NCBI GenBank assembly: GCA_963698025.1
Contig: OY969112.1
Location: forward strand, 5,445,200-5,509,199
DNA from: an uncultured Acidobacteriota bacterium
GTDB taxonomy: Bacteria > Acidobacteriota > Thermoanaerobaculia > Multivoradales > UBA5704
Reading direction: 5' to 3'
Length of the DNA: 64,000 bases
Under the pieces are notes generated by a model that made no database searches, was not told the origin of the DNA, and saw only the letters and a program-made list of their open reading frames with translations. Of the stretch, positions 4,527 through 62,040 are shown one piece after another (position 1 is the stretch's first letter; each line of letters opens with the position of its first letter). Position numbers and translations under genes: made by a program.

Positions 4527-5659
4527 GGGCCCACCTCGCGGAGGAGCACCAGGATGGCGGTGAGGTTGTAGAAGGCGAGGTTGCCCCGCGGCGTGGGGCC
4601 GATCTCCCCGCAGGTGAAGAAGCCCGAGAGGGGGACGCCGCCGAGCGCCTTGCGGATCGCCTCGGACTCATCCCCGGAGCGGTCGCCCAGCACCGCCTCG
4701 CGCCCCATGCAGGAGTAGAGGATCGCCGCCTCCGGCTCCGGGCCGGCCGAGAGCTCCGAGGCGGTGCGCACCAGCGAGAGCTCGTTGCCCATGCCGAGCC
4801 GCACGTGGTCGCCGGTCTCGACGTCGCCCAGGAAGGTGACGGTGCCGGGGGGATCGTCGAACCGGCGCATGCTGCGGTAGAGCCCCTGGCGCTCCGGCCG
4901 CGGCCCCTCGACGATCAGGGGGAAGCGGTTGGCCGCGGCGGGCATCGGGGCGAGCTCGCCGTCGACGGTGAAGAAGCGGCGGTACCAGTCGGCCGCCGGC
5001 TCGCCGGCGATCTCGTGGACCACGCCCGCCTCGGCGCGGGTGACCGTGTAGACGGGGGAGGCCGGGGTCCAGCCGCGCACCACCTCCACCCGCATCGCGA
5101 CGCCGTGCAGGGTCACCACCAGGCAGGCGGAGGGGAGCACCCGGTCGCCCACGAACACCCGCGAGCCGGCCTGGGTCACCGGCTCGCGCTGTGAGGCGAG
5201 GCCGCCGGCCACGAACGGCGGCATGCTGACCAGCGTCCGCCGCAGCTCGGCGAGGAAGCGCTCGACGGGGAAGCGCAGGCCGTCGACCAGCAGCAGCGCG
5301 CCGTCCGCCGCGGCGATGTGGCGCGCCACCGCCTCGATCCGCCGGGCGGCAGGGGGCGCGCCGTGGGTGCCGGGGATCACCTCCACGGTGGCGTGATGGC
5401 GCGGGTCGTCGAACCAGAAGAGCTGGAGGGTGCCGGTGCTCGTCGTCTCCGCGTCGGCGAACTGCGTCACCGCCTCGCAGCCGAAGCGCAACGAGTCCGG
5501 CCAGACCGAGGTGATCATCGCCAGCGTCTCGCGCAGCCAGGCCTCGGGGGGGAGGAACGCGAGCACCATGTCGGGCGGACGTCCGCCCTCCTCGGCAGCG
5601 GCGAGCAACAGCTCCCGCGGGCAGGGACCCCCGGGCAGATGGACGGTTCGGCTCCGCAT
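4523..5659 (-). CDS. FIST-domain sensor protein (FIST_N + FIST_C)
   Basis: The 378 aa soluble protein has a C-terminal GFFTCGEIGP-type motif typical of FIST_C. Its stop overlaps the start of the GGDEF-EAL gene (translational coupling). It is the first gene of the operon FIST / GGDEF-EAL / permease / permease. Confidence 0.65.
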   Translation of the reverse strand: MRSRTVHLPGGPCPRELLLAAAEEGGRPPDMVLAFLPPEAWLRETLAMITSVWPDSLRFGCEAVTQFADAETTSTGTLQLFWFDDPRHHATVEVIPGTHGAPPAARRIEAVARHIAAADGALLLVDGLRFPVERFLAELRRTLVSMPPFVAGGLASQREPVTQAGSRVFVGDRVLPSACLVVTLHGVAMRVEVVRGWTPASPVYTVTRAEAGVVHEIAGEPAADWYRRFFTVDGELAPMPAAANRFPLIVEGPRPERQGLYRSMRRFDDPPGTVTFLGDVETGDHVRLGMGNELSLVRTASELSAGPEPEAAILYSCMGREAVLGDRSGDESEAIRKALGGVPLSGFFTCGEIGPTPRGNLAFYNLTAILVLLREVGP

Positions 5660-5788
5660 GGCAGCTAGAGGCCGCGCGGCCCGGTCGCCGGCGGCGGCGT
5701 TTTTCCCCCTCGTTTGTTCAATCTGTGCGGTTGGATTGTACGCCCGGGACAGGGCAGGGGGAAGAAGGGGGGGCTTTTCCGTTTTTTC

Positions 5789-7423
5789 CTACTCCAGCCC
5801 GGCCTCCCGGTACTCCCCGTAGACCTCCCGCAGAGCGTCCGAGATCTCCCCGAGCGTGACCTCGGCGCGCACGCAGTCGAGGATCGCCGGCATCAGATTG
5901 CGGTCCTCGCGAGCGCCGGCGGCGAGGGCGCCGACTGCCGCCGCGGCGCGCTCCGGGCTCCGCCGCTCGCGCACGGCGCGGAGCCGTTCCACCTGCCGGC
6001 GCTCGGCCTCGGGATCGATCCGCAGGACCTCCGTCGGCAGCTCCCCGTCCGCCGCATAGGCGTTGACCCCCACCACGATCTCCCGCTTCTCCTCGACCGC
6101 CATCTGGTAGAGGTAGGCGGCGTCGGCGATCTCCTTCTGCTGGAACCCCCGCTCGAGGCCGGCGAGGGCGCCGCCCATCTCGTCGATGCGGCGGATGTAG
6201 TCGCGCGAGCGCTGGACGATCTCCTCCGTCCACGCCTCGACGACGTAGGAGCCGCCGAGCGGATCGGCCACGTCGGCGATTCCGCTCTCGTTGGCGATCA
6301 CCTGCTGGGTGCGCAGCGCCAGGCGCGCCGCCTCCTCGGTGGGGAGCCCCAGGGCCTCGTCGAGCGAGTTGGTGTGCAGCGACTGGGTGCCGCCGCAGAC
6401 CGCGGCCAGGGCCTGCAGGGCCACCCGCACGACGTTGTTCTGCGGCTGCTGGGCGGTGAGCGTCGAGCCCGCCGTCTGGGTGTGGAAGCGCAGCCAGAGC
6501 GAGCGCGGGTCCTTCGGGGCGAAGCGCTCCCGGACCAGCTCGGCCCACAGCCGCCGGGCGGCGCGGAACTTCGCCACCTCCTCGAGGAAGTTGTTGTGGG
6601 CGTTGAAGAAGAAGGAGAGGCGCGGCGCGAACTCGTCGACCCCCAGACCCCGGTCGAGCGCCGCCTGCACATAGGCCAGCCCGTTGGCGAGGGTGAAGGC
6701 CACCTCCTGCACCGCCGTCGAGCCCGCCTCGCGCATGTGGTAGCCGGAAATCGAGATCGTGTTCCACTTCGGCACCCGCTCGGCGCAGAAGGCGATGATG
6801 TCGGTCACCAGCTTGAGCGACGGCTTCGGCGGATAGATGTAGGTGCCGCGCGCGGCGTACTCCTTGAGGATGTCGTTCTGGACCGTGCCCCCCACCTTCT
6901 CCCAGGGCACCCCCTGCTCCTCGGCCACCACCAGGTAGAGCGAGAGCAGGATGGCCGCCGTGGCGTTGATCGTCATCGAGGTCGTCACCCGGTCGAGGGG
7001 GATGCCGTCGAAGAGCAGGCGCATGTCGTCGATCGAGTCGATCGCCACCCCGACGCGCCCCACCTCGCCGCGGGCGAGGGGGGAGTCCGAGTCGTAGCCG
7101 ATCTGGGTCGGCAGGTCGAAGGCCACCGAGAGCCCCGTCGTCCCCTGGGAGAGGAGATAGCGGTAGCGCTGGTTCGACTCGGCGGCCGAGGAGTACCCCG
7201 CGTACTGGCGCATGGTCCAGTGGCGCTGGCGGTACATGTCCGGATAGAGGCCGCGGGTATAGGGGTACTGCCCGGGGTCGCCCAGCTTCTCCGGATACGG
7301 GAGGCCCGCCACGTCCCGCGGCGTATAGAAGCGCCGGACGGGGATCTCGGAAGAGGTCCGCCGCTCGTCTTCTTCGACGGGGGGGGCGGCGGGGCGGTCG
7401 GCGGTCTTCGTCTCGGTGGCCAT
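5789..7423 (-). CDS. Methylmalonyl-CoA mutase family protein, catalytic (TIM-barrel) domain only; no fused B12-binding domain
   Basis: The 544 aa product shows strong family signatures ([66 protein letters not shown]). It ends before the C-terminal cobalamin-binding domain of canonical large subunits. Confidence 0.88.
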
Positions 7424-7454
7424 GGGGGGATTCTATATAGATAAGGAAGGGAGA

Positions 7455-7559
7455 GGTGGCCTGCGTGGGCGACCGCAGGTCGCCCCTACAACCTTCGATC
7501 CAGGTATGAGGTTGGACGGAGGGTGTAGGGGCGACCTGCGGTCGCCCACGCAGGCCACC
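7455..7559. repeat. Perfect 36-bp inverted repeat (arms 7455-7490 and 7524-7559, 33-nt spacer), each arm containing a nested palindrome GCGACCGCAGGTCGC
   Basis: The second arm is the exact reverse complement of the first, verified base by base. It lies between the stop of the 7591..8214 gene and the start of the mutase gene on the minus strand. An AT-rich TCTATATAGATAAGG stretch sits between the hairpin and the mutase ATG. Confidence 0.9.
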
Positions 7560-7590
7560 GACGTCCCGATCATCGCTTCGTCCTTCCCCG

Positions 7591-8214
7591 CTAGGGGTTC
7601 GCCTTGCCGCTGTCCGACGTCTTCTGGAGCACCAGCGACTGCTTGCTGGTGGCGTCGGTGACGCGGATCTCCCCGGTCATCACCTCGAGCTGCCACTGGC
7701 CGACCTGCTGGCCGCCCATGCCCAGGGCCTTCACGCAGTTGCCCGGGTCCTGGGTAGTGCCGGTCCACCCCTGGCCGGAGGGTTGGAGGGAGAGATTGCA
7801 GGCCGCCCGCATCTCGGTCGACGAGACCTGGCCGGAGCCCTTCGCGGTCGCCTCCGGTCCCTGGGTGAGGCGGGGCGTGAGGGACATCAGCACCTCGGAC
7901 CCCTGGTTGTCCAGGTGGATGATCCCCTGCTGGTTCAGCTCCTTGCCCTGGAATCTCCCCGAGACGGTGGCGAGCAGGTTGCCGGAGTCGTCCGTGCCGC
8001 CGCTGCTCTCGATCTTCAGCCGGATGTCGGCGTCGTCGCGCTGGAGCCGGTAGGTGCCCATCAGGGCCGCGGCGACCCCGGCGGCGTCTCCGTGCCGGGT
8101 CGAAGAGCCCTTCTGGTCGTTCCCCTGGGCCGCCGCGGGGGCCTGCCGGCCCAGCCCTGCGGCGAGAGCCGCCAGGAGGACGAGAGCGAGTGTAGAATGT
8201 CCGTGTCGTTTCAT
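7591..8214 (-). CDS. Hypothetical secreted protein (signal peptide, Gly/Ser/Thr/Gln-rich)
   Basis: A GGAGGT RBS lies 7 nt upstream of the ATG. The N-terminus MKRHGHSTLALVLLAALAAGLG-AAAQG is signal-peptide-like. The amino-acid composition is non-shadow-like, in contrast to the overlapping 353-aa Arg/Pro/Gly-rich frame. No recognisable family. Confidence 0.5.
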   Translation of the reverse strand: MKRHGHSTLALVLLAALAAGLGRQAPAAAQGNDQKGSSTRHGDAAGVAAALMGTYRLQRDDADIRLKIESSGGTDDSGNLLATVSGRFQGKELNQQGIIHLDNQGSEVLMSLTPRLTQGPEATAKGSGQVSSTEMRAACNLSLQPSGQGWTGTTQDPGNCVKALGMGGQQVGQWQLEVMTGEIRVTDATSKQSLVLQKTSDSGKANP

Positions 8215-8273
8215 GGTTATACCTCCGGTCCCTGGCCGTTGCGAAAACGTTCCAAAGTAGGGAAAGGGAGAAA

Positions 8274-9122
8274 TTGGAGATGTCTCTGAGATTGAACAGG
8301 GTCAGTGTGCTGTCTTTCGTTCCGGTTCTCATCCTCGTTCTCCTCGCGGGGTTGCCGGCCGGCGCCGCCCCCGCCGCCAAGGCCGCCCCGGCCGCCACCG
8401 CCGCCGCGGCCGGCCCCGTGGACCTCAACGCGGCGACCCAGGCGCAGCTGGAGTCGCTCCCCGGCGTCGGCCCGGCGACGGCCAAGAAGATCATCGCTGC
8501 CCGCCCCTATGCCTCGGTGGCCGACCTCTCCAAGGCGGGTCTTTCTGCCAAGGGGGTCCAGAAGCTCACACCGCTGGTGACCGTGGGCGCCGCCCCGGCG
8601 GCTCCCGCCGCTCCGGCCGCCCCGAAGCCGGGCAAGGCCGCCCCGGCGGCCCTGGGCGGTCCCGTGGATCTCAACACCGGCACCCAGGCGCAGCTGGAGG
8701 CGCTCCCCGGCGTCGGTCCGGCGACGGCGAAGAAGATCATCGCCGGCCGCCCTTACGCCTCGGCGGCGGACCTCTCCCGGGCGGGCGTCCCCGCCAAGAC
8801 GATCACCAAGATCACGCCCATGGTGACCGTGGCGCGCGCTCCGCTCGCCTCGGGGAACTCGGCGGGCGTCGAGCCCATCCGCCCGCCCGCCGCTCCGAAG
8901 ACCGGCACGACCACGACGACGACGACGACCACCCAGACCGTGGCCCAGACGCCCCCCTCCCCGGGCATGGTGTGGGCCAACCCGGAGACCAAGGTCTTCC
9001 ACCGGGCGGGGGACCCCTGGTACGGTAAGACCAAGCGCGGCCAGTGGATGGCCGAGGCCGACGCGGTCAAGGCCGGCTACCGTGAGGCCAAGAAGGGCGG
9101 CAAGGCGAAAGCGCAGCCCTGA
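8274..9122 (+). CDS. Secreted ComEA-like DNA-binding protein with two tandem helix-hairpin-helix units, a poly-Thr linker and a basic C-terminal domain
   Basis: An RBS GGGAGA is present and a signal peptide. The two repeats are PVDLNAATQAQLESLPGVGPATAKKIIAARPYASVADL and PVDLNTGTQAQLEALPGVGPATAKKIIAGRPYASAADL. The DNA repeats 8410-8540 and 8657-8790 are about 88% identical. A T9 tract and a C-terminal Lys-rich tail follow. Confidence 0.8.
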   Translation: MEMSLRLNRVSVLSFVPVLILVLLAGLPAGAAPAAKAAPAATAAAAGPVDLNAATQAQLESLPGVGPATAKKIIAARPYASVADLSKAGLSAKGVQKLTPLVTVGAAPAAPAAPAAPKPGKAAPAALGGPVDLNTGTQAQLEALPGVGPATAKKIIAGRPYASAADLSRAGVPAKTITKITPMVTVARAPLASGNSAGVEPIRPPAAPKTGTTTTTTTTTQTVAQTPPSPGMVWANPETKVFHRAGDPWYGKTKRGQWMAEADAVKAGYREAKKGGKAKAQP

Positions 9123-9172
9123 GCGCCGAGCGGGCGCATGGCCGGCGCGCAAGCTTCAGGAAAGGAAGGTCT

Positions 9173-9460
9173 ATGAAATTAGTGCGTCTCTTCTCCGTTC
9201 TGTTCCTGTTCCTCGCCGTCGTGGCACCTTCGCGGGCGATCGAGTTCCCATGCTCGGAGATCTGCACCTGCGCCCGCGACTGCTATCAGGTCTGCATCAG
9301 CAAGACCGGCGGATTGACGAACTGCGGTTCAACCGGCCGATGCGTGGGAGGCTCCAAGTGCCCCTCGACGCATTCGGCCGACCTCGCCGCCAGCTTTCTG
9401 AGCCCGCGGGAAGCGACACCCGCGGTCTGTGCCCTGCCGGCGCCGAAGACACCGGTCTAA
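9173..9460 (+). CDS. Small secreted cysteine-rich protein (95 aa precursor, 10 Cys in ~50 aa mature core)
   Basis: GGAAGG RBS, signal peptide MKLVRLFSVLFLFLAVVAPSRA, and core CSEICTCARDCYQVCISKTGGLTNCGSTGRCVGGSKC. The third-position GC is lower than in neighbours (codons aaa, tta, gga, ttg, ggt, tca). A strong terminator lies 34 nt downstream. Confidence 0.6.
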   Translation: MKLVRLFSVLFLFLAVVAPSRAIEFPCSEICTCARDCYQVCISKTGGLTNCGSTGRCVGGSKCPSTHSADLAASFLSPREATPAVCALPAPKTPV

Positions 9461-9493
9461 AGGCCGCTCATCCCGTCGGCTTGCCTCGGCAAA

Positions 9494-9523
9494 GGGGCGC
9501 GGCGTGCCGCGCCCCTTTTCATT
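9494..9523 (+). terminator. Rho-independent terminator (9-bp GC stem GGGGCGCGG/CCGCGCCCC, 4-nt loop, then TTTTCATT)
   Basis: Seen directly: aaaGGGGCGCGGcgtgCCGCGCCCCttttcatt, just downstream of the Cys-rich gene. Confidence 0.8.
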
Positions 9524-9682
9524 GGGGGATCGGCGGATCGGCCGCCCTGGCCCATCATGCTGCGTCCTGCGCCTGTCCAAGCCCTACATATAGATTTCCT
9601 CAGGCTCCCGAGGGGACCGCGTAAATCCGGCTGTGGAAATCTTGTCGAGAAGATGTGGATTGTAAGACATTCCTTCGGAGCA

Positions 9683-9730
9683 TCCCCAACTCTTGGGGCG
9701 CCGACTGTTACAGTCCACAACATCTTGTGG
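9683..9730 (+). promoter_or_regulatory. Pair of candidate NrdR boxes (tCCCCAActcTTGGGG at 9683-9698 and CCACAAcatcTTGTGG at 9715-9730), centres ~32 bp apart
   Basis: Two 16-bp near-palindromes resemble the NrdR consensus acaCwAtATaTwGtgt. They are spaced by about three helical turns and lie immediately upstream of a TTGACA-17bp-TAGTTT promoter-like element and the nrdJ gene. Confidence 0.5.
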
Positions 9731-9738
9731 TTTTACCC

Positions 9739-9767
9739 TTGACAGGCAACCCGGGTGGGCGTAGTTT
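9739..9767 (+). promoter_or_regulatory. Sigma70-like promoter candidate (TTGACA, 17-bp spacer, TAGTTT) for nrdJ, followed by a ~215-nt leader
   Basis: Hexamers seen directly. The ATG of nrdJ is at 9983. Confidence 0.35.
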
Positions 9768-9982
9768 TGAAGAAGCGGACGTCATCGAATTTCATCCCAA
9801 ATGGACGAGAGCATCCAGTCGTTTGCAGGCGTGGTGATGCCGGGGACTCCGGTCCGCAGGGACGGCCCGCCAACCCTGATCTGTAGTCCTCCATTGGCAG
9901 AGAATGGTCTGTCGTGGGTGGGCCGCGCCCTTGGCGTGCCCGCTTGAAGGTCAACGAGCGAAACAATCATCGAGGAGAGAGC

Positions 9983-12808
<2,826 letters not shown>

Positions 12809-12828
12809 GGGGGGCGGCGGCGGTCGCC

Positions 12829-13485
12829 ATGAATCTGCTCTACACAGCCCACGTTCCCGCCGGGGACGGTCCGTTCCCGGCGATCATCACCCTCCATGGC
12901 TGGGGGGCCAGCGCTCACGATCTCCTGGGGCTCGCGCCTGTCCTGTTCGATGGCAAGGCCGTGATGCTCTGCCCACAGGGGGAGGTCACCGTGCCGTTCG
13001 GCGGCGGCCAGCACGGCTATGGATGGTTCCCGCTACGCGCGGGACAGCCGCCCGATGTCGAGGCGTTCCGGCGCGCGTCGGACTCCCTGAAGGGGTTCGT
13101 CGACACGGCGCTCGAACGCTATCCGATCGACCCGCGGAAGGTCATCGTCGCCGGCTTCAGCCAGGGGGGGATGATGGCCTACGAGCTGGCCCTGAGCGAT
13201 CCCACCCGCTTCGCCGGGCTCGTCGCCCTCTCCTCGTGGTTCCCGCCGCCCCTGGTCGAGCTGCTGCCGAAGCAACCCGAGCACGAGGGGTTCCCGGTCC
13301 TCGTCATCCACGGCACGCGGGACGACCGGATCGAGGTCGAGCGCGCCCGCGAATCGCGCGAGGCCCTGCGCCCCTACGGGGTGGCGATGACCTACCGCGA
13401 GTTCGACATGGGGCACGAGATCCGTCAGGACGCCCTGAAGCTCGTCCTGAAGTGGCTTGACGAGAAGGCGCTGAAGAAGGAGTGA
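12829..13485 (+). CDS. Alpha/beta-hydrolase, phospholipase/carboxylesterase family
   Basis: 218 aa, with ITLHGWGASAHDL, the nucleophile elbow GFSQGG, and a conserved HG...D...H arrangement. ATG at 12829, in frame within the spurious 11614..13485 ORF. Confidence 0.85.
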   Translation: MNLLYTAHVPAGDGPFPAIITLHGWGASAHDLLGLAPVLFDGKAVMLCPQGEVTVPFGGGQHGYGWFPLRAGQPPDVEAFRRASDSLKGFVDTALERYPIDPRKVIVAGFSQGGMMAYELALSDPTRFAGLVALSSWFPPPLVELLPKQPEHEGFPVLVIHGTRDDRIEVERARESREALRPYGVAMTYREFDMGHEIRQDALKLVLKWLDEKALKKE

Positions 13486-13494
13486 CGGTGAAGA

Positions 13495-13530
13495 GGATGT
13501 AGGGGCGCCCGGGAGGCTACCCCTACATCC
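13495..13530. terminator. Bidirectional terminator-like hairpin / REP-like palindrome (11-bp stem GGATGTAGGGG...CCCCTACATCC, 14-nt loop) between convergent genes
   Basis: Seen directly between the hydrolase stop (13485) and the stop of the minus-strand gene (13552). It shares the TGTAGGGGCGcC / CCCCTACA core with the 7455-7559 inverted repeat. Confidence 0.6.
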
Positions 13531-13551
13531 TTCCATCCTGCCGATCCGCGG

Positions 13552-14268
13552 TCAGGCGGTGGCGCCGGCCAGGACGGGCTCGGCGACGGGCAGCTCCTCC
13601 GTGCCGAACATCACCTTGCGCAGGCGGTCGAAGAAGCTGATCCAGAGGCTCCACATCTCTTCGGCGTTGGTGACGATGGCGTCGATCTCGGCGGCGGAGA
13701 AGTCGGGCTCGATCGCCTCGTTGACCTGGGCGACGTGGTCGGGCTCCTGCAGGATGTGGATGTCCACCCAGGGGAGCTCCTTGAGGCCGCTGACGCGGCG
13801 GACCGCGTGGCCGATGCCGCCCACCATCGCCAAGTCGGCGACCTCGGTGCCATAGACGAAGCCGAGGGCGCCCAGCCGCTCGCCCGAAGCCTCCTCGTAA
13901 CGCTGCACCAGCCGCGCGGTCTCCGCGAACGGCGCCGCCTCGGAGACCGTCGCGGCGTCGAAGCCGGCCTCCTCCATCGTCGTGACGTAGATCCGCTCGT
14001 GGGCCCGCGCGGGAGTGCCCTCGCCGAGCTCCTGGTAGAGGATCTTCGAGATCGCCGTCTTCATCTCGAGCATGGGCACCTGGTCGATGGTGCGGGAGAG
14101 GAAGTTCGGGAAGTAGTGAAGCGGGTGCCACCACTGGCCCAGAAAGATGCCGACCTTCTCCCGGTCCAGGGCCGCGGAAGACCGTACTTCCTTGAAGAAG
14201 GGGTGATGAATCAGCTGCTTGCGGAGGGGGTTCTCTTCCAACCGTTCGGTAATTCCAGTGCCGAGCAT
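13552..14268 (-). CDS. Heme-oxygenase-like fold protein (TenA/PqqC/CADD-like 'iron-containing redox enzyme' family); candidate non-heme diiron tailoring enzyme
   Basis: The 238 aa all-helical protein starts MLGTGITERLEENPLRKQLIHHPFFKEV...FLGQWWHPLHYFPNFLSR, typical of the PqqC/TenA/HDO superfamily. Several E...H pairs could form a diiron site. It is transcribed divergently from the NRPS. Confidence 0.65.
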   Translation of the reverse strand: MLGTGITERLEENPLRKQLIHHPFFKEVRSSAALDREKVGIFLGQWWHPLHYFPNFLSRTIDQVPMLEMKTAISKILYQELGEGTPARAHERIYVTTMEEAGFDAATVSEAAPFAETARLVQRYEEASGERLGALGFVYGTEVADLAMVGGIGHAVRRVSGLKELPWVDIHILQEPDHVAQVNEAIEPDFSAAEIDAIVTNAEEMWSLWISFFDRLRKVMFGTEELPVAEPVLAGATA

Positions 14269-14487
14269 GAGCTTTCCTTTCCTATTCAGTAAAACCGAGG
14301 GGCCGAAGATTAAAGATCAAAAGAACCTGAAGCATGTGGTGCCGTAGATCTGAAAACGCCTCCCAAGGCAGCGGGTTTCGCCCCACCTAATTCGTGCAGC
14401 TCGCCCCACGAGATGGGACAACAGAGGGGAGTGACGATCCTATTTCGTTGTCTCGGGAGGGGGAAGAACGGACACCTTATTTACGGT

Positions 14488-14503
14488 TGTGAAAGTTTGC
14501 ACA
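14488..14503 (+). promoter_or_regulatory. CRP/FNR-type site candidate TGTGAaagtttGCACA in the divergent promoter region between the HDO-like gene and the NRPS
   Basis: A 5-6-5 half-site arrangement with one mismatch to TGTGA-N6-TCACA. It sits in a 385-bp AT-richer intergenic region. Confidence 0.3.
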
Positions 14504-14653
14504 GGATCGCGCGGTCCATCCAGGTCGCCCGCCTTCGCTAAAAGATGTTGTTAAAAGATTACTAGTGAAAAATCAGATCTGCTTGAAGGTTGCGAAGTAT
14601 TTGCGGCGAGTCGTCTTCGCGACGGGAAGGCGTGAGCCAGAGAAGGGAGAGTC

Positions 14654-33091
<18,438 letters not shown>

Positions 33092-33111
33092 TCGCAAAGG
33101 AAGAATTTTCG

Positions 33112-34896
<1,785 letters not shown>

Positions 34897-35986
34897 GCGC
34901 CGCTGGAGCCGAGCGCCAGACCAATCTGCGCGCCCTGCTGCGCCGTGGCGAGCCCACGGACGAGGCCTCCCGCCGGCTCGCCCGCACCGAGCACGCGCAG
35001 CCCATCCTCTTCGCCGTCGAGTACGCGCTGGCGCGGCTGTTGATGGCCTGGGGCGTCCAGCCGCAGGCGATGATCGGCTACAGCCTGGGCGAGTACGTGG
35101 CCGCCTGCCTCTCCGGCGTCCTCTCCCTGGAGGACGCCCTGGCCCTGGTGGCGCGGCGCGCGAAGCTGATCCAGGAGCTCCCCGCCGGCGCCATGCTCGC
35201 CGTGCCGGCCCCTGAAACCGAGGTGCGGCCGCTGCTCGACGAGCGCCTCGCCGTCGCCGCCACCAACGGCCCGCACCTCTGCGTCGTCGGCGGCCCCGAG
35301 GAGGCGGTGGCGGAGCTCGAGAGCCGGTTGGCCGAGCGAGGGGTGACCAGCCTCCGGCTGACCACCACCCACGCCTTCCACACGCCGATGATGCAGCCGG
35401 CGGCGGCGGCGCTTACCCAACTTGCCGGTACGGCGCGGGTAGGGGCGCCGAAGATCCCCTACCTGTCGAACGTCACCGGCACCTGGATCACCGCCGCCGA
35501 CCTCCAGGACCCCGGCTACTGGGCGCGCCACATGGTCCAGGCGGTGCGCTTCGCCGAGGCGGTGGCCGAGCTGCTGCGCGATCCTGACCGCGTCATGGTC
35601 GAGGTCGGGCCGGGCGGGACCCTCTCCGCGCTGGTGCGCCAGCACCCCGAGGGGGGTGCCGGACGGCTCGCCGTGGGGACGATGCGGCGGTCGAGCGAGG
35701 CGGGATCGGATCTCGCCCTGCTGCTCGACGCCCTCGGCCGCCTCTGGGTGGAAGGCGCGCCGTTCGACCCCGCGGGGCTCTTCGCCGGCGAGCGGCGGCA
35801 TCGCGTGCAGCTGCCGACCTACCCCTTCGAGCGCCAGCGCTACTGGATCGATCCGCCGCGGGGGGGAGAAGCCCGGCCGGCCGCCGCCTCAGGGACGACG
35901 CCGGCGTCGACCGGCACCCGTCCCGACCCGGCGGACTGGTTCTGGGCGCCGGTCTGGAAGCAGGCGCCACTGGCGGCACCCGCCGC

Positions 35987-36853
35987 CGGGGGGACGGCGG
36001 CTGGCTGGTCTTCCTCGATCGCGGGGGTCTGGGCGGGCGGCTGGCCGAGCGGCTGCGGCGCGACGGCCAGACCGTGGCCACCGTCGCCGCCGGCGCCGCT
36101 TTTCACGCAGACGGCCACGTCGCCGGCGAGGCGTTCACCATCGATCCGGCCCGGCGGCAGGACTACGACAGCCTCGTCCAGCACCTGCGGGCCGGGGGCA
36201 GGGAGCTCCCCGCGAAGGTGCTCCACCTCTGGGGGGTGACCGGCGCCGAGCCCACCTTCGACGAGGCGCAGGCGCGGGGGCTGCTCAGCCTGATCTTTCT
36301 GGGGCAGGCGGTCACCGCCGCCGGCGGGGGGAGCTCGCCGGTGCACCTCGCCATGGTGGCCGACGGCCTGCACGACGTGGCGGACGGCGATCCGGTGCAT
36401 CCGGGCAAGGCGACGGTCCTCGGCGCCGTCAAGGTGATCCACCAGGAATCGACGCGGCTGACCTGCGCCTGCATCGATGTCGTGCCGCCCCCGGCGGGCA
36501 CTCCCGAGGAGGAGCGGCTGATCGGCGATCTCCTGGCCGAGGCGTCGCTCGGGGCCGACGGCCGGCTCGACGTCGCCGTCGCCTACCGCGGCCGGCGGCG
36601 CTGGGTGCGTCACTTCGAGCCGGTGCGGCTGCCGGCGGGCGACGCGGCCTCGCGCCTCGTCGCTGGAGGGGCCTACCTGGTCACCGACGGCGTCCACGGC
36701 GGCGGCGCGGCCGTCGCCGAGCTGCTGGTGCGGTCGATGGGGGTGCGGGTGGCGCTGGTGGTGCCGCCGCAGTTCCCGCCGCCCGAGCGTTGGGAGGGTT
36801 GGGAGGGGCTGCCGGCCGTGCCGCCGGGGGGGACGTCCTCGGCGCCGCGGTGA
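35987..36853 (+). CDS. PKS fragment 3: KR structural subdomain and start of the catalytic subdomain (frame 2)
   Basis: WLVFLDRGGLGGRLAERL ... GGAYLVTDGVHGGGAAVAELL. It stops at 36853 after the G7 run. Confidence 0.5.
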   Translation, partial: RGDGGWLVFLDRGGLGGRLAERLRRDGQTVATVAAGAAFHADGHVAGEAFTIDPARRQDYDSLVQHLRAGGRELPAKVLHLWGVTGAEPTFDEAQARGLLSLIFLGQAVTAAGGGSSPVHLAMVADGLHDVADGDPVHPGKATVLGAVKVIHQESTRLTCACIDVVPPPAGTPEEERLIGDLLAEASLGADGRLDVAVAYRGRRRWVRHFEPVRLPAGDAASRLVAGGAYLVTDGVHGGGAAVAELLVRSMGVRVALVVPPQFPPPERWEGWEGLPAVPPGGTSSAPR

Positions 36854-37893
36854 AGCGGCTGTCCGCTCTCGGAGCGGAGGAGCGGGAGCGCCTCCTGCTG
36901 GTGCGCGCCGAGTCTGGAGATCCGGCCGCGATCCGCGCGGCGCTGTCGCAGACCCGCGCCGCCTTCGGCCCGCTCCAGGGGGTGTTCCACACTGGGGGCG
37001 CTTTCACCGGCGGGCTGATCCAGCTCAAGACCGCCGAGGCCCTGCGCGCCACCGTCGATCCCGCGGCGCTGGGTGCCCAGGCCTGGCTGGCGGCCTTCGC
37101 GGCCGAGCCGGAGCCGCCTGCTTTCTTCCTCTTGATGTCCTCGACCCTGGCGTTCACCGGTGGGCTCGGGCAGCTCGACATCGCCGCCGCGGGCGCGTTC
37201 CTGGATGCCTTGGCCCGGCGCCATGCCGCCGGCGGCGGCCCGTTCACCGTGGCCGCGCATTGGGACCCCTACCAGTGGGATGGCTGGCTGCTCGCCGCCG
37301 CGGCCGGCGTCGTCGCCGGGTTGCAGCCGGCGGAGATCCACAAGAACCTGGAGGCCTGGGGCATCGCCACAGAGCGCAGCGGCGAGGCGCTGCGCCGGCT
37401 GCTCGCCGCCAGCCTGCCGCAGGTGATCGTGGCCTCGCGCGACCTGCCCGCCATGATCGCCGAGGCGGACTCGATCACCGCCGACACCCTGTTCGCCCAG
37501 ATGGCGCCGATGCACCGTGGCGAGAAGGCGCAGCGCCCCGGGCTCGCCACTGCCTACGTGGAGCCGCGCGACGAGCGCGAGCGGCACCTCGCCGCCCTCT
37601 GGGAGGAACTGTTCGGGATCGCGCCGATCGGCGCCGAGGACAGCTTCCTGGAGCTGGGCGGCCACTCCCTGCTGGCGATCCAGATGGTGACGCAGATCCG
37701 CGCCCTGTTCGAGGCCGACCTGCCGGTGACGGCGCTGTTCGAAGCGCCCACGATCGTCGAGCTGGCGAAGCTGATCGGGCGGGCGAAGGGGGAGGAGAGC
37801 CCCGAGGATCTCGAGGCCCTGTTGGCCCTGATCGAGGGGCTCTCGCCCGAGGAGGCGGCCGAGAAGCTGGCGTCCATGGAGGCCGCGCTGTGA
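36826..37893 (+). CDS. PKS fragment 4: KR catalytic subdomain remainder, carrier domain and C-terminal docking tail (frame 1)
   Basis: VFHTGGAF ... LMSSTLAFTGGLGQLDIAAAGAFLDALA ... [15 protein letters not shown] ... LASMEAAL stop. Confidence 0.55.
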   Translation, partial: GGDVLGAAVKRLSALGAEERERLLLVRAESGDPAAIRAALSQTRAAFGPLQGVFHTGGAFTGGLIQLKTAEALRATVDPAALGAQAWLAAFAAEPEPPAFFLLMSSTLAFTGGLGQLDIAAAGAFLDALARRHAAGGGPFTVAAHWDPYQWDGWLLAAAAGVVAGLQPAEIHKNLEAWGIATERSGEALRRLLAASLPQVIVASRDLPAMIAEADSITADTLFAQMAPMHRGEKAQRPGLATAYVEPRDERERHLAALWEELFGIAPIGAEDSFLELGGHSLLAIQMVTQIRALFEADLPVTALFEAPTIVELAKLIGRAKGEESPEDLEALLALIEGLSPEEAAEKLASMEAAL

Positions 37894-39362
37894 GCGTTGC
37901 CGAGCGCCTCTCCGCGCTCACCCCGGAGCAGCGCGCCCTGTTCGAGGCGCTGCGCCGCAGGCAGCAGGAGAGCCAGGCCGCGAAGCCCCTCCTGCCGCCG
38001 CCGGTGCTCCGGGTCACCGGCCCCACCGCGGCCGGCGACTGGCCGCTGTCGATCGATCAGGAACGGCTCTGGCGCATGCACCGGGAGAACCCCGCCCTGG
38101 TCTCCTGGAACGTCGACGCCGCCAGCCGCATGCGAGGGGAGATCGCGGTGCCGGCGCTGGCGGCGGCCCTGCGCGAGCTGATCCGCCGCCACGCCGCTTG
38201 GCGCGCGACCTTCCCGGTGGCCGGCGGCCGGCCGGTGCAGCGGATCGTGGAGTCGGTCGAGCTGGACTTCGCGATGATCGACGTGGCGGCCCTGCCGGCG
38301 GAGCTCCGCGAGGCCGCGGGGCGCCGCGCCCTGTTCGATCGCACGCGGGCGGTCTTCGACCTCGAGCGCGGGCCGCTGGTGCGCGCCGCCCTGGTGCGGA
38401 CCGGGGAGCGCGATCACTTCTGCCTGCTCACCGTGCACCACATCGCGACCGATTGGATCACCTTCCAGATCGCCTTCCAGGAGCTGATGGCGCTGTACGA
38501 GGCCGCCCGGACCGGAGCCCCGAGCCCGCTGCCGGAGCCCGCGTTGCAGTTCCCGGACTACGCCGTTTGGGAGCGCGAGCAGTGGAGCGGCGAGACGTTG
38601 CAGGATTACGCCGAATTCTGGGGTGCCGAGCTCGCCGGCTTCCCGCTCGCCTTCGACCTGCCCGGCGACCGCCCCCGCCCGCCGGTGCAGAGCCAGCGCG
38701 GCGGCATGATCCCGTTCACCTCCGGTCCCGAGCCGGCCCACCGGCTGCGCGCCCTCGCCCGCCGCGAAGGGGTGACGACGTTCATGGCCCTGCTCGCCGT
38801 CGTCGACGCCCTGCTCTTCCGCCTCTCCGGCCGGGAGAAGCTGGTGGTTGGCTCGAACAGCGCCAACCGGCCGCGGCCGGAGCTGGAGCCGGTCGTCGGC
38901 CTGTTTCTCACCCAGGTGCCGTTCGCCGTCGACCTCGCCGGCGATCCGACGTTCCGCGAGCTGCTCGCCCGCGTCAGGAAGTCCTCTCTCGCCGCCTACA
39001 CGCATCAGAACATGCCGTTCGACAAGCTGGTCGAGATCCTGGCGCCGGAGCCCGATCCGAGCCGCAACCCGGTGGTGCAGGTGCTGCTCCTCGTCCTCGC
39101 CGGGCAGAGCCACGGCGGCGGCGAGAGCGTCGACTCCGAGGCGGTGCCGCTGTTCGACGGCAACTCGCGCTGGGACCTGATGTTCGGCCTCTACGACTAC
39201 GACGACCTGGGGTTCTCCGGGCCGGTGGAGTTCAACGCCGACATCCTCGACCGTCCGACCGTGGAGCGCTGGCTCGGCCTGTTCCGCCGCATCCTCGACC
39301 GGGTGGTGGCCGACCCCGACGCGCGGCTGTCGTCGCTGCCGTCGCTCGCGGAGGGCGCATGA
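37890..39362 (+). CDS. Free-standing NRPS condensation-domain protein with N-terminal docking helix
   Basis: The GTG start at 37890 overlaps the PKS stop (GTGA). The 490 aa product begins VSVAERLSALTPEQRALFEALRRR, carries a variant active-site motif HHIATDWITF (HHxxxD with W for G), and has no A or T domain. Its stop overlaps the ATG of the next gene (ATGA). Confidence 0.85.
   Translation: MSVAERLSALTPEQRALFEALRRRQQESQAAKPLLPPPVLRVTGPTAAGDWPLSIDQERLWRMHRENPALVSWNVDAASRMRGEIAVPALAAALRELIRRHAAWRATFPVAGGRPVQRIVESVELDFAMIDVAALPAELREAAGRRALFDRTRAVFDLERGPLVRAALVRTGERDHFCLLTVHHIATDWITFQIAFQELMALYEAARTGAPSPLPEPALQFPDYAVWEREQWSGETLQDYAEFWGAELAGFPLAFDLPGDRPRPPVQSQRGGMIPFTSGPEPAHRLRALARREGVTTFMALLAVVDALLFRLSGREKLVVGSNSANRPRPELEPVVGLFLTQVPFAVDLAGDPTFRELLARVRKSSLAAYTHQNMPFDKLVEILAPEPDPSRNPVVQVLLLVLAGQSHGGGESVDSEAVPLFDGNSRWDLMFGLYDYDDLGFSGPVEFNADILDRPTVERWLGLFRRILDRVVADPDARLSSLPSLAEGA

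Positions 39363-47140: not shown

Positions 47141-62040
<14,900 letters not shown>

Follow-up and report, generated by a model that had tools for sequence, protein, structure and literature searches.

A putative heme-oxygenase-like dimetal oxidase linked to a FAAL-initiated nonribosomal peptide synthetase in an uncultured Acidobacteriota bacterium

The 64,000-nucleotide stretch of contig OY969112.1 that was analyzed here (the window; uncultured Acidobacteriota bacterium, Thermoanaerobaculia) carries a small gene that is arranged divergently from the gene of a large nonribosomal peptide synthetase (NRPS), termed NRPS1, which has fatty acyl-AMP ligase (FAAL) as its opening domain. As judged from its sequence, the product of the small gene is predicted to be an oxidase or oxygenase that activates O2 at a site with two metal ions, most likely iron, and that falls into the superfamily of heme-oxygenase-like dimetal oxidases (HDO). 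It is very likely a dedicated accessory enzyme of the adjacent FAAL-initiated NRPS/polyketide synthase (PKS) cluster, the edge of which it marks; that the gene encodes a cluster-dedicated dimetal oxidase can be stated with high confidence. Concerning the substrate, the view that is favored by a modest degree is that a free precursor with a carboxylate group, an amino acid being the likeliest case, would be oxidized before it is loaded onto the assembly line.

Family membership, predicted metal site, and linkage to NRPS genes

The HDO open reading frame (ORF) begins with ATG in the ORF list and is preceded, at a distance of 6 nt, by the ribosome-binding site (RBS) GGAAAGGA, which is invariant in relatives. 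Its GC fractions at the three codon positions, 0.65/0.41/0.91 (GC3 0.91), within a genome of ~72% GC mark it as a real gene, and the deduced protein aligns with its relatives over the full length, end to end.

A heme-oxygenase-like enzyme had been recognized in this ORF by the initial annotation, together with a proposal of profile and structure searches, and both searches bear it out. Pfam family PF14518 (Haem_oxygenas_2) matches with an E-value of 7e-22 and 78.4 bits, against a gathering cut-off of 28.9, and covers profile positions 3-176 of 177. The AlphaFold2 (AF2) model, built with 24 relatives, consists of 11 helices and no strands (predicted local distance difference test, pLDDT, 86; predicted template modeling score, pTM, 0.84). 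In a Foldseek search against the PDB, matches to BesC, CADD, HrmI, PolF, UndA, and TenA homologues were obtained at template modeling (TM) scores of 0.6-0.75 and 10-20% identity; the first five were hit with a probability of 1.00 and lie at near-equal distance, with TM scores of about 0.72-0.75. Based on this model, the assignment to the HDO fold is regarded as certain, and no characterized enzyme is close to the protein. When the family profile was compared with PDB sequences, BesC ranked first (E = 1.2e-6), followed by FlcD (3BJD/8W1Q, identified as FlcD through PMC11363339), which is matched in the N-terminal half only, and by the p-aminobenzoate (pABA) synthase 9pj4 (E = 4e-4).

A diiron site composed of three histidines and three carboxylates, which the initial annotation had named as the feature to look for, is predicted from the alignment. 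The residues E83/H90, E142, and H171/E175/H178, which would hold the two metal ions, align with the ligands E-x6-H, E, and H-x3-E-x2-H of BesC in the profile alignment. All six are present without exception in 24 family members, and every full-length sequence from 15 further lineages has them too. The family has additional invariant polar residues, namely E80 and D145 as well as, upstream of these, H48 and H51. The active-site motifs LGQWWHPLH[YF]F, QE.GEG.....AHE, YGTEVADL, and WV.IH..QEP.H are identical in every lineage, including the NRPS-less copies; the partial copy of Microcoleus was left out of this comparison.

Several more specific assignments were considered and rejected. TenA/thiaminase II (PF03070) scores 17 bits against a cut-off of 22, and the protein, being devoid of any cysteine, cannot be a TenA-type thiaminase. 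For PqqC, no model is found among the NCBIfam matches at E ≤ 1 and no pqq genes are present in the window; the 'PqqC' labels that relatives carry at JGI are automatic names. The sole NCBIfam match is the CADD-family pABA synthase model TIGR04305, with 33.1 bits against a curated cut-off of 200. A lysine-cleaving allylglycine synthase of the BesC type was dismissed at ~20% identity, the genes of the partners BesD (lysine halogenase), BesB (pyridoxal phosphate enzyme), and BesA (ligase) not being found in the window. Score, fold, and ligand set place the protein in the HDO superfamily, and by all criteria applied it stands outside the families of BesC, UndA, PolF, HrmI, SznF, CADD, TenA, and PqqC.

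The linkage to NRPS genes was assessed in a scan of one genome per GTDB species, in which 125 carriers were found and 80 loci were examined. NRPS domains occur in the fetched locus of 63 of the 80 species-level genomes, in 50 cases within 1 kb of HDO. Among the close orthologues (HDO identity of at least 69%, n = 36), 33 are adjacent to an NRPS gene, 31 have an orthologous FAAL start as neighbor (60-88% identity), and 26 are accompanied by the esterase gene that also adjoins HDO in the window. The HDO-NRPS neighborhood recurs in Acidobacteriota, Pseudomonadota, Myxococcota, Eisenbacteria, and Cyanobacteria, and in an all-against-all clustering of the neighbor proteins NRPS is the sole family common to the lineages. 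The earlier proposal of HDO as a tailoring candidate for the NRPS gains support from this adjacency across phyla. The family is rare, with 44 representative clusters at E ≤ 1e-30 among 1.84 billion proteins; rarity and NRPS linkage together point to a cluster-borne accessory gene and not to a housekeeping gene.

The adjacency persists through rearrangements. HDO homologues are abundant in Thermoanaerobaculia metagenome bins (73-92% identity). Relatives at 83-86% identity show the window-like order of esterase, HDO, and divergent FAAL-NRPS, with a pseudouridine synthase, DUF5818, and an M28 peptidase beyond the esterase. At 77-80% identity, esterase and HDO are found with a co-directional NRPS of 6092-6216 amino acids, the HDO-NRPS gap being 10-86 bp and the outer flank consisting of MOSC, amidohydrolase, RF3, and ClpS/ClpA. 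Between the divergent and the co-directional arrangement, HDO alone is flipped relative to esterase and NRPS. At least five contexts are found on the far side, including NrdJ (in the window), pseudouridine synthase/M28, MOSC/amidohydrolase, penicillin amidase, and BNR; the FAAL-coding end of the NRPS is the constant neighbor of HDO in Thermoanaerobaculia in either orientation. In Dyella, Rudaea, Paraburkholderia, Kofleriaceae, Eisenbacteria, and Polarisedimenticolia, HDO is located 80-200 bp upstream of an NRPS that begins with a condensation (C) domain, and in two loci (L035 and L045) NRPS genes lie on both sides of it. The HDO gene of Eisenbacteria follows a MupA-type luciferase-like monooxygenase gene and a PKS gene, and its start overlaps the preceding gene.

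It is very improbable that a housekeeping or otherwise unrelated gene of the TenA, PqqC, or CADD type has come to lie at the cluster border by chance, and this explanation is already largely refuted by synteny. It could draw on the border position next to the esterase gene and nrdJ, on the weak CADD-type likeness (TIGR04305, 33 bits; 9pj4, E = 4e-4), and on orthologues without an NRPS in locus L039 and in ten Corallococcus/Polyangiaceae genomes, which, together with six short contigs, are the exceptions to the linkage. It is contradicted by the NRPS adjacency, which holds for 63 of 80 genomes from different phyla and survives rearrangements, by the rarity of the family, and by the sub-threshold or missing matches to TenA, PqqC, and CADD. 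The counter-case envisaged by the initial annotation was an orthologue of housekeeping TenA or PqqC in NRPS-unrelated synteny; what was found instead are the low scores, the absence of cysteine, and a synteny linked to the NRPS.

Some of the more distant loci show arrangements of their own. In Dyella choica (L063, positions 5126-19711), the HDO orthologue is part of an operon that encodes a DegT aminotransferase, a family 3 encapsulin shell protein, a sulfotransferase, a short-chain dehydrogenase/reductase (SDR), a methyltransferase, and HDO; then follow the genes of a C-domain-first NRPS, with DVQFIAQLA as the code of its first adenylation (A) domain, and of a stand-alone acyl ligase. The same order is present in Kofleriaceae (L069), Rudaea, and Paraburkholderia, with HDO identities of 55-58% in loci of this type. 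The encapsulin belongs to the 'natural-product' family 3 (NF041188, E = 1e-101, above cut-off). Since the operon is near-identical in Gammaproteobacteria and Myxococcota, horizontal transfer is indicated. No HDO is listed for the published chloromyxamide cluster, which likewise has a family 3 encapsulin.

In Corallococcus exercitus (L080, positions 8894-10663) and in eight other Corallococcus loci, HDO is divergent from a desaturase gene (PF00487) across a 114-bp gap; no NRPS is found within 10 kb of these, and genes for PhoU-like and PHO4 phosphate-transport proteins come next. This arrangement may reflect a lipid-related use of the same enzyme. As a general partner of HDO the desaturase was not recovered, being confined to Corallococcus apart from a weak 25% match in L078. 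An esterase-less Thermoanaerobaculia relative (L017, positions 10894-13860, forward strand) has a penicillin-amidase-family N-terminal nucleophile (Ntn) hydrolase gene adjoining HDO. This family includes the pyoverdine acylase PvdQ, and the analogy hints that in some clusters the fatty-acyl starter might be removed after assembly. In two distant HDO relatives (P0223 and P0236), a tryptophan dimethylallyltransferase-like domain is located N-terminally of the HDO domain, and other distant relatives are fused to TIR or trypsin-like domains. As clues to function these fusions were discarded, since all of them fall outside the clade, are apparently uncharacterized, and give no lead.

Nature of the substrate

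In the proposed mechanism, a free substrate carboxylate would complete the metal site before O2 activation, as in BesC, UndA, and AetD; the free small molecule would be oxidized first and would then be loaded by an adenylating domain. Options for the reaction would be C-H hydroxylation or desaturation, C-C cleavage, ring formation, and N-oxygenation. In SznF and RohS, the auxiliary helix alpha-2 provides a seventh ligand, a Glu that precedes the core Glu by 26 residues, whereas BesC, UndA, and AetD lack this residue and make use of the substrate carboxylate instead (PMC13133933). In the helix comprising residues 36-63 of the present protein, judged by sequence offset, no conserved acidic residue is found, with E37 and D62 varying among lineages. 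If, as this suggests, the protein provides no seventh carboxylate, a substrate with a free carboxylate would be needed, which in turn would disfavor thioester-tethered substrates. In addition, the identity of the motifs across lineages with clearly different assembly lines argues for a common small substrate and not for a cluster-specific intermediate.

Among free precursors, an amino acid that would be converted to a non-proteinogenic building block is placed first, at about even chances, and a free fatty acid destined for the FAAL domain is placed second, as a possible but doubtful candidate; action at the peptide level or on a carrier-tethered residue would roughly take up most of the remaining probability. 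A Pro-like residue would be one candidate, and a small or basic residue of an unusual kind would be another. Characterized HDOs act overwhelmingly on amino-acid-derived substrates (PMC13185094), which is counted here in favor of an amino acid. The extra invariant polar residues E80, D145, H48, and H51 would point in the same direction. In the Dyella/Kofleriaceae operons, HDO stands directly before the module with the Pro-like code DVQFIAQLA, and the same cassette provides the aminotransferase, the sulfotransferase, the SDR, and the methyltransferase. The comparison of the synthetases covered 10 kb of each. Pro-like and D[IV]WHFG-type codes recur across the loci, and codes of the form DVQF[IV]A[QH]L[AV] are found in the module nearest HDO in the Dyella/Kofleriaceae group, in L045, and in L078. 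The nine-position A-domain codes of NRPS1 are, in order, DVFCNGVVY, DAFWLGGTF, DVWHFGEVD, DVQFMAHAA, and DLYSLAFVW; judged by its code, the A domain of module 4 might be a candidate acceptor of an imino acid made by HDO. No hit was obtained in the literature for the code DVQFIAQ. Chalkophomycin was examined as a parallel and rejected, because N-hydroxypyrrole formation there uses flavoenzymes and not an HDO.

Alternatively, HDO could serve the lipid tail. A free fatty acid, which the neighboring esterase may first liberate, would be oxidized by beta- or alpha-hydroxylation or by desaturation, and the FAAL domain would then load it as the starter. This is considered rather unlikely. As a constant neighbor, the FAAL domain fits a fatty-acid substrate: the FAAL end is retained in both orientations, while the codes of modules 1-2 vary within Thermoanaerobaculia. 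An Abhydrolase_2 esterase lies beside HDO in 26 of the 36 close loci; features of lipo-initiation are also seen in other lineages, in that the Dyella-type NRPS, which opens with a C domain, is accompanied by the stand-alone acyl ligase and in Microcoleus an AMP-binding gene and then an 82-amino acid ORF are located ahead of the NRPS; and the Corallococcus orthologues are divergent from a membrane fatty-acid desaturase. UndA, a structural neighbor at a TM score of ~0.7, is an HDO that uses a free fatty acid. However, UndA is the sole characterized lipid-acting HDO, is not matched here at the sequence level, and by its chemistry removes the carboxylate that the FAAL domain requires. Moreover, the HDO gene of Eisenbacteria is found in mid-operon before an internal module of C, A, and thiolation (T) domains, the invariant residues E80, D145, H48, and H51 would suit a polar substrate better than an alkyl chain, several loci have no esterase gene, and that of the window is apparently co-transcribed with nrdJ.

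Oxidation after assembly, that is, of the released lipopeptide or of a short peptide intermediate, is improbable. A precedent is set by MboA of mangotoxin biosynthesis, an HDO acting on a tripeptide with a free C-terminus (PMC13185094), and the location at the cluster edge would be compatible with a late step; yet the motifs are identical across clusters of differing peptide sequence and length, and in NRPS-less genomes as well, and MboA is absent from the sequence and fold matches.

Less probable still is tailoring on the assembly line, in which HDO would act in trans on a carrier-bound thioester, for example, on Val held by the tandem-T module. Tandem carrier domains frequently mark modules that are served by trans-acting enzymes. 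The tandem T of the initial annotation is indeed present in module 2 of NRPS1; L010, L013, L017, and L025, which are the closest relatives, have a tandem T as well, and so does L016, where it belongs to module 1. It is, however, confined to window-type variants of NRPS1 and shows no correlation with the presence of HDO, and most HDO-linked synthetases, as far as their modules are visible, have the architecture C-A-T-C-A-T-C and lack a tandem T, which speaks against the earlier suggestion that a residue held there is the substrate. We know of no characterized HDO with a carrier-tethered substrate. As the family appears to lack a seventh carboxylate of the SznF/RohS type, it would by analogy depend on a free carboxylate of the substrate, and a thioester has none to offer (PMC13133933).

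Several points have to be weighed against a cluster-dedicated enzyme that oxidizes a free amino acid. The six-ligand site is assigned from the sequence alignment, and the argument concerning the seventh ligand is drawn from a sequence offset and not from a structural superposition. With no characterized HDO closer than ~20% identity, the reaction type is not transferable. Within the 10 kb compared, the HDO-linked clusters do not all share any one A-domain code, and in Thermoanaerobaculia the codes of modules 1-2 vary at an HDO identity of 77-92% and with a constant FAAL domain. In L039 (72% identity), no NRPS is present within 10 kb, and the neighbors of HDO are a catalase, an esterase-DinB pair, and a trehalose-phosphate synthase. 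Corallococcus orthologues (52-53% identity, same motifs) reside beside the membrane fatty-acid desaturase, with no NRPS.

Gene surroundings in the window

The coordinates of the features are compiled in Table 1. The AT-richer divergent promoter region that the initial annotation had placed between HDO and NRPS1 measures exactly 385 bp, as had been stated, and has 52% GC against 62-75% in the flanks. Its conserved block contains an inverted repeat, GGGACA...TGTCTC (14415-14454), with invariant arms and a variable insert of 25-38 nt that often forms a hairpin of its own, and an invariant core, GGAAGA(N4-6)CACC(T/A)TATTT(A/G)CGGTT (14462-14488). A single copy of the core is present in each of 14 relative loci of the divergent type, which lie on 12 distinct contigs, at a position ~190-200 bp upstream of the HDO start. 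Neither a sigma-70 or terminator consensus nor an Rfam match was found in the spacer, and when the element was examined as a structured RNA, no compensatory pairs were seen and the fold z-scores were weak. Judged by its conservation, the block probably is a regulatory site for the divergent pair, either an operator/promoter element or a hairpin in the 5' untranslated region.

Upstream of HDO, the window carries housekeeping-type genes for methylmalonyl-CoA mutase, class II ribonucleotide reductase (nrdJ), and the esterase. Beyond NRPS1 lie one PKS module and a further three NRPS reading frames, which extend up to the window end. Housekeeping genes on one side and NRPS/PKS genes on the other place HDO at the edge of a large hybrid cluster. 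The first 585 residues of NRPS1 match NCBIfam FAAL models with E-values of 1e-132 to 1e-114, below the curated cut-offs. A search for full-length NRPS1 orthologues returned fragments and FAAL-NRPS proteins of ~1800 amino acids, and no proteins of ~6000 amino acids.

The esterase gene, for which no NCBIfam model matches at its cut-off, begins just 20 bp behind nrdJ, which suggests that the two share a transcript here; yet it accompanies HDO and NRPS in 26 of the 36 close relatives, and the esterase-HDO pairing is kept in three different chromosomal contexts. The esterase is a probable, though not obligatory, member of the cluster; it may serve in fatty-acid supply, may act as an editing thioesterase, or may be unrelated.

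The single PKS module at 33100-37900 on the forward strand, composed of ketosynthase (KS), acyltransferase (AT), a middle region, and ketoreductase/acyl carrier protein (KR/ACP), is divided among four reading frames that follow one another, the frame changing near 34.6, 35.85, and 36.75 kb. Similarly, the last NRPS A domain shifts frame at the NRPS3/NRPS4 junction (~61880-62040, forward strand). These frame switches stem either from indels introduced as errors in a long-read assembly or from pseudogenization; the HDO ORF is intact despite them.

Table 1. Features of the HDO gene and its surroundings, in window coordinates
Feature	Position	Strand	Basis
HDO coding sequence, 238 amino acids, stand-alone predicted dimetal oxidase	13552..14268	-	ORF, PF14518, helical model
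Six predicted metal-ligand codons	13735..14022	-	invariance and BesC alignment
E83, predicted ligand	14020-14022	-	
H90, predicted ligand	13999-14001	-	
E142, predicted ligand	13843-13845	-	
H171, predicted ligand	13756-13758	-	
E175, predicted ligand	13744-13746	-	
H178, predicted ligand	13735-13737	-	
Divergent spacer between HDO and NRPS1 start codons, 385 bp, RBS-like sequence before each gene	14269..14653	.	52% GC
Conserved non-coding block	14415..14488	+	alignment of divergent-type relatives
NRPS1, 6145 amino acids, FAAL-T-C-A-T-C-A-T-T-C-A-T-C-A-T-C-A-T	14654..33091	+	motif and Pfam mapping
FAAL loading domain of NRPS1	14654..16408	+	PF23024, NCBIfam FAAL models
Tandem T-T, NRPS1 module 2 (Val-like code)	22811..23353	+	motif mapping
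A domain, NRPS1 module 4, Pro-like code DVQFMAHAA	27971..29533	+	specificity code
Abhydrolase_2 carboxylesterase/thioesterase-like gene, 218 amino acids, convergent with HDO	12829..13485	+	PF02230, E = 1e-23

Significance and comparison with known HDO enzymes

The occurrence of an HDO beside an NRPS is what a specialist would expect; nothing is overturned by it, and the gene falls into the expected category. HDO chemistry comprises N-nitrosation, the formation of alkenes, alkynes, and nitriles, and the building of azetidine rings, and, to our knowledge, each newly characterized HDO clade has so far brought a new reaction. The present clade is small, is almost always attached to NRPS genes, and has no characterized member within ~20% identity, and its hosts (Thermoanaerobaculia, other Acidobacteriota, and Eisenbacteria) are poorly explored. 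The literature yielded no publication in which an HDO is coupled to a FAAL-initiated lipopeptide synthetase, and none that deals with this clade. It is conceivable, if tentative, that the clade, with QWWHPLHYFP, E80, and D145 as its hallmarks, catalyzes an undescribed HDO reaction that NRPS clusters of several phyla have taken up more than once. Such a reaction might produce an imino or amino acid that is cyclic or unusual in another way and is loaded by the atypical A domains with Pro-like (DVQF..) or D[IV]WHFG-type codes, or it might oxidize the fatty-acid starter and leave its carboxylate in place. The family 3 encapsulin may accompany the reaction in the Dyella/Kofleriaceae relatives. The clade thereby offers a handle for seeking a new building-block-forming reaction as well as a clean marker for prioritizing uncharacterized lipopeptide clusters of Acidobacteriota.

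Among known systems, BesC, the 4-chloro-allylglycine synthase of Streptomyces cattleya (PDB 7TWA), is both the best profile match and the top Foldseek hit (TM score 0.72-0.78). The two proteins have the E-x6-H, E, and H-x3-E-x2-H ligands in common, and both are small stand-alone enzymes of similar size. BesC is one of the substrate-triggered HDOs, in which the protein contributes no seventh carboxylate, and the sequence suggests the same for the HDO protein. It differs by an identity of just ~20% and by its partners, a lysine halogenase, a pyridoxal phosphate enzyme, and a ligase, which are not found in this window; QWWHPLHYFP and E80/D145 are the clade's own and are absent from BesC in the alignment.

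The HDO fold is also shared by UndA, the fatty-acid decarboxylase of Pseudomonas that forms 1-undecene (PDB 4WWJ; TM score ~0.67-0.72). UndA binds a free fatty acid by its carboxylate at the metal, which is of relevance to the FAAL neighbor here, but it shows 10-13% identity, gives no sequence-level match, and is not associated with an NRPS. PolF, which forms an azetidine in polyoxin biosynthesis (PDB 9J3V, 9PRR), and the lysine N6-oxygenases HrmI/BelK (PDB 9N1X) share the fold at TM scores of ~0.72-0.75. They convert free amino acids to non-proteinogenic building blocks, which is the role proposed for the HDO protein, and PolF yields a cyclic imino acid resembling proline, which would be in keeping with the Pro-like A-domain codes that recur across the loci. 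They differ in identity (14-17%; PolF is detected with an E-value of 0.26, HrmI is not detected) and are longer, with 260-340 amino acids.

The highest target-normalized TM score, 0.82, is reached by the CADD-type pABA synthases (Chlamydia CT610, PDB 1RCW/8VA9; 9PJ4), which are of similar length, have almost the same ligand numbering, and give weak full-length profile matches; they differ by 13% identity and by their place in folate metabolism as opposed to the NRPS context found here. The subgroup-1 N-oxygenases SznF and RohS belong to the same superfamily and have the same six core ligands, but their cupin partner was not seen with the HDO gene and no sequence-level match was obtained; at the position of SznF E189 and RohS E98, the HDO protein appears to have no conserved carboxylate (PMC13133933). 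Summarizing, the closest likeness is to BesC with regard to sequence and the apparent lack of a seventh ligand, and, by analogy of the proposed role, to the enzymes that supply peptide building blocks, PolF, HrmI, and BesC.

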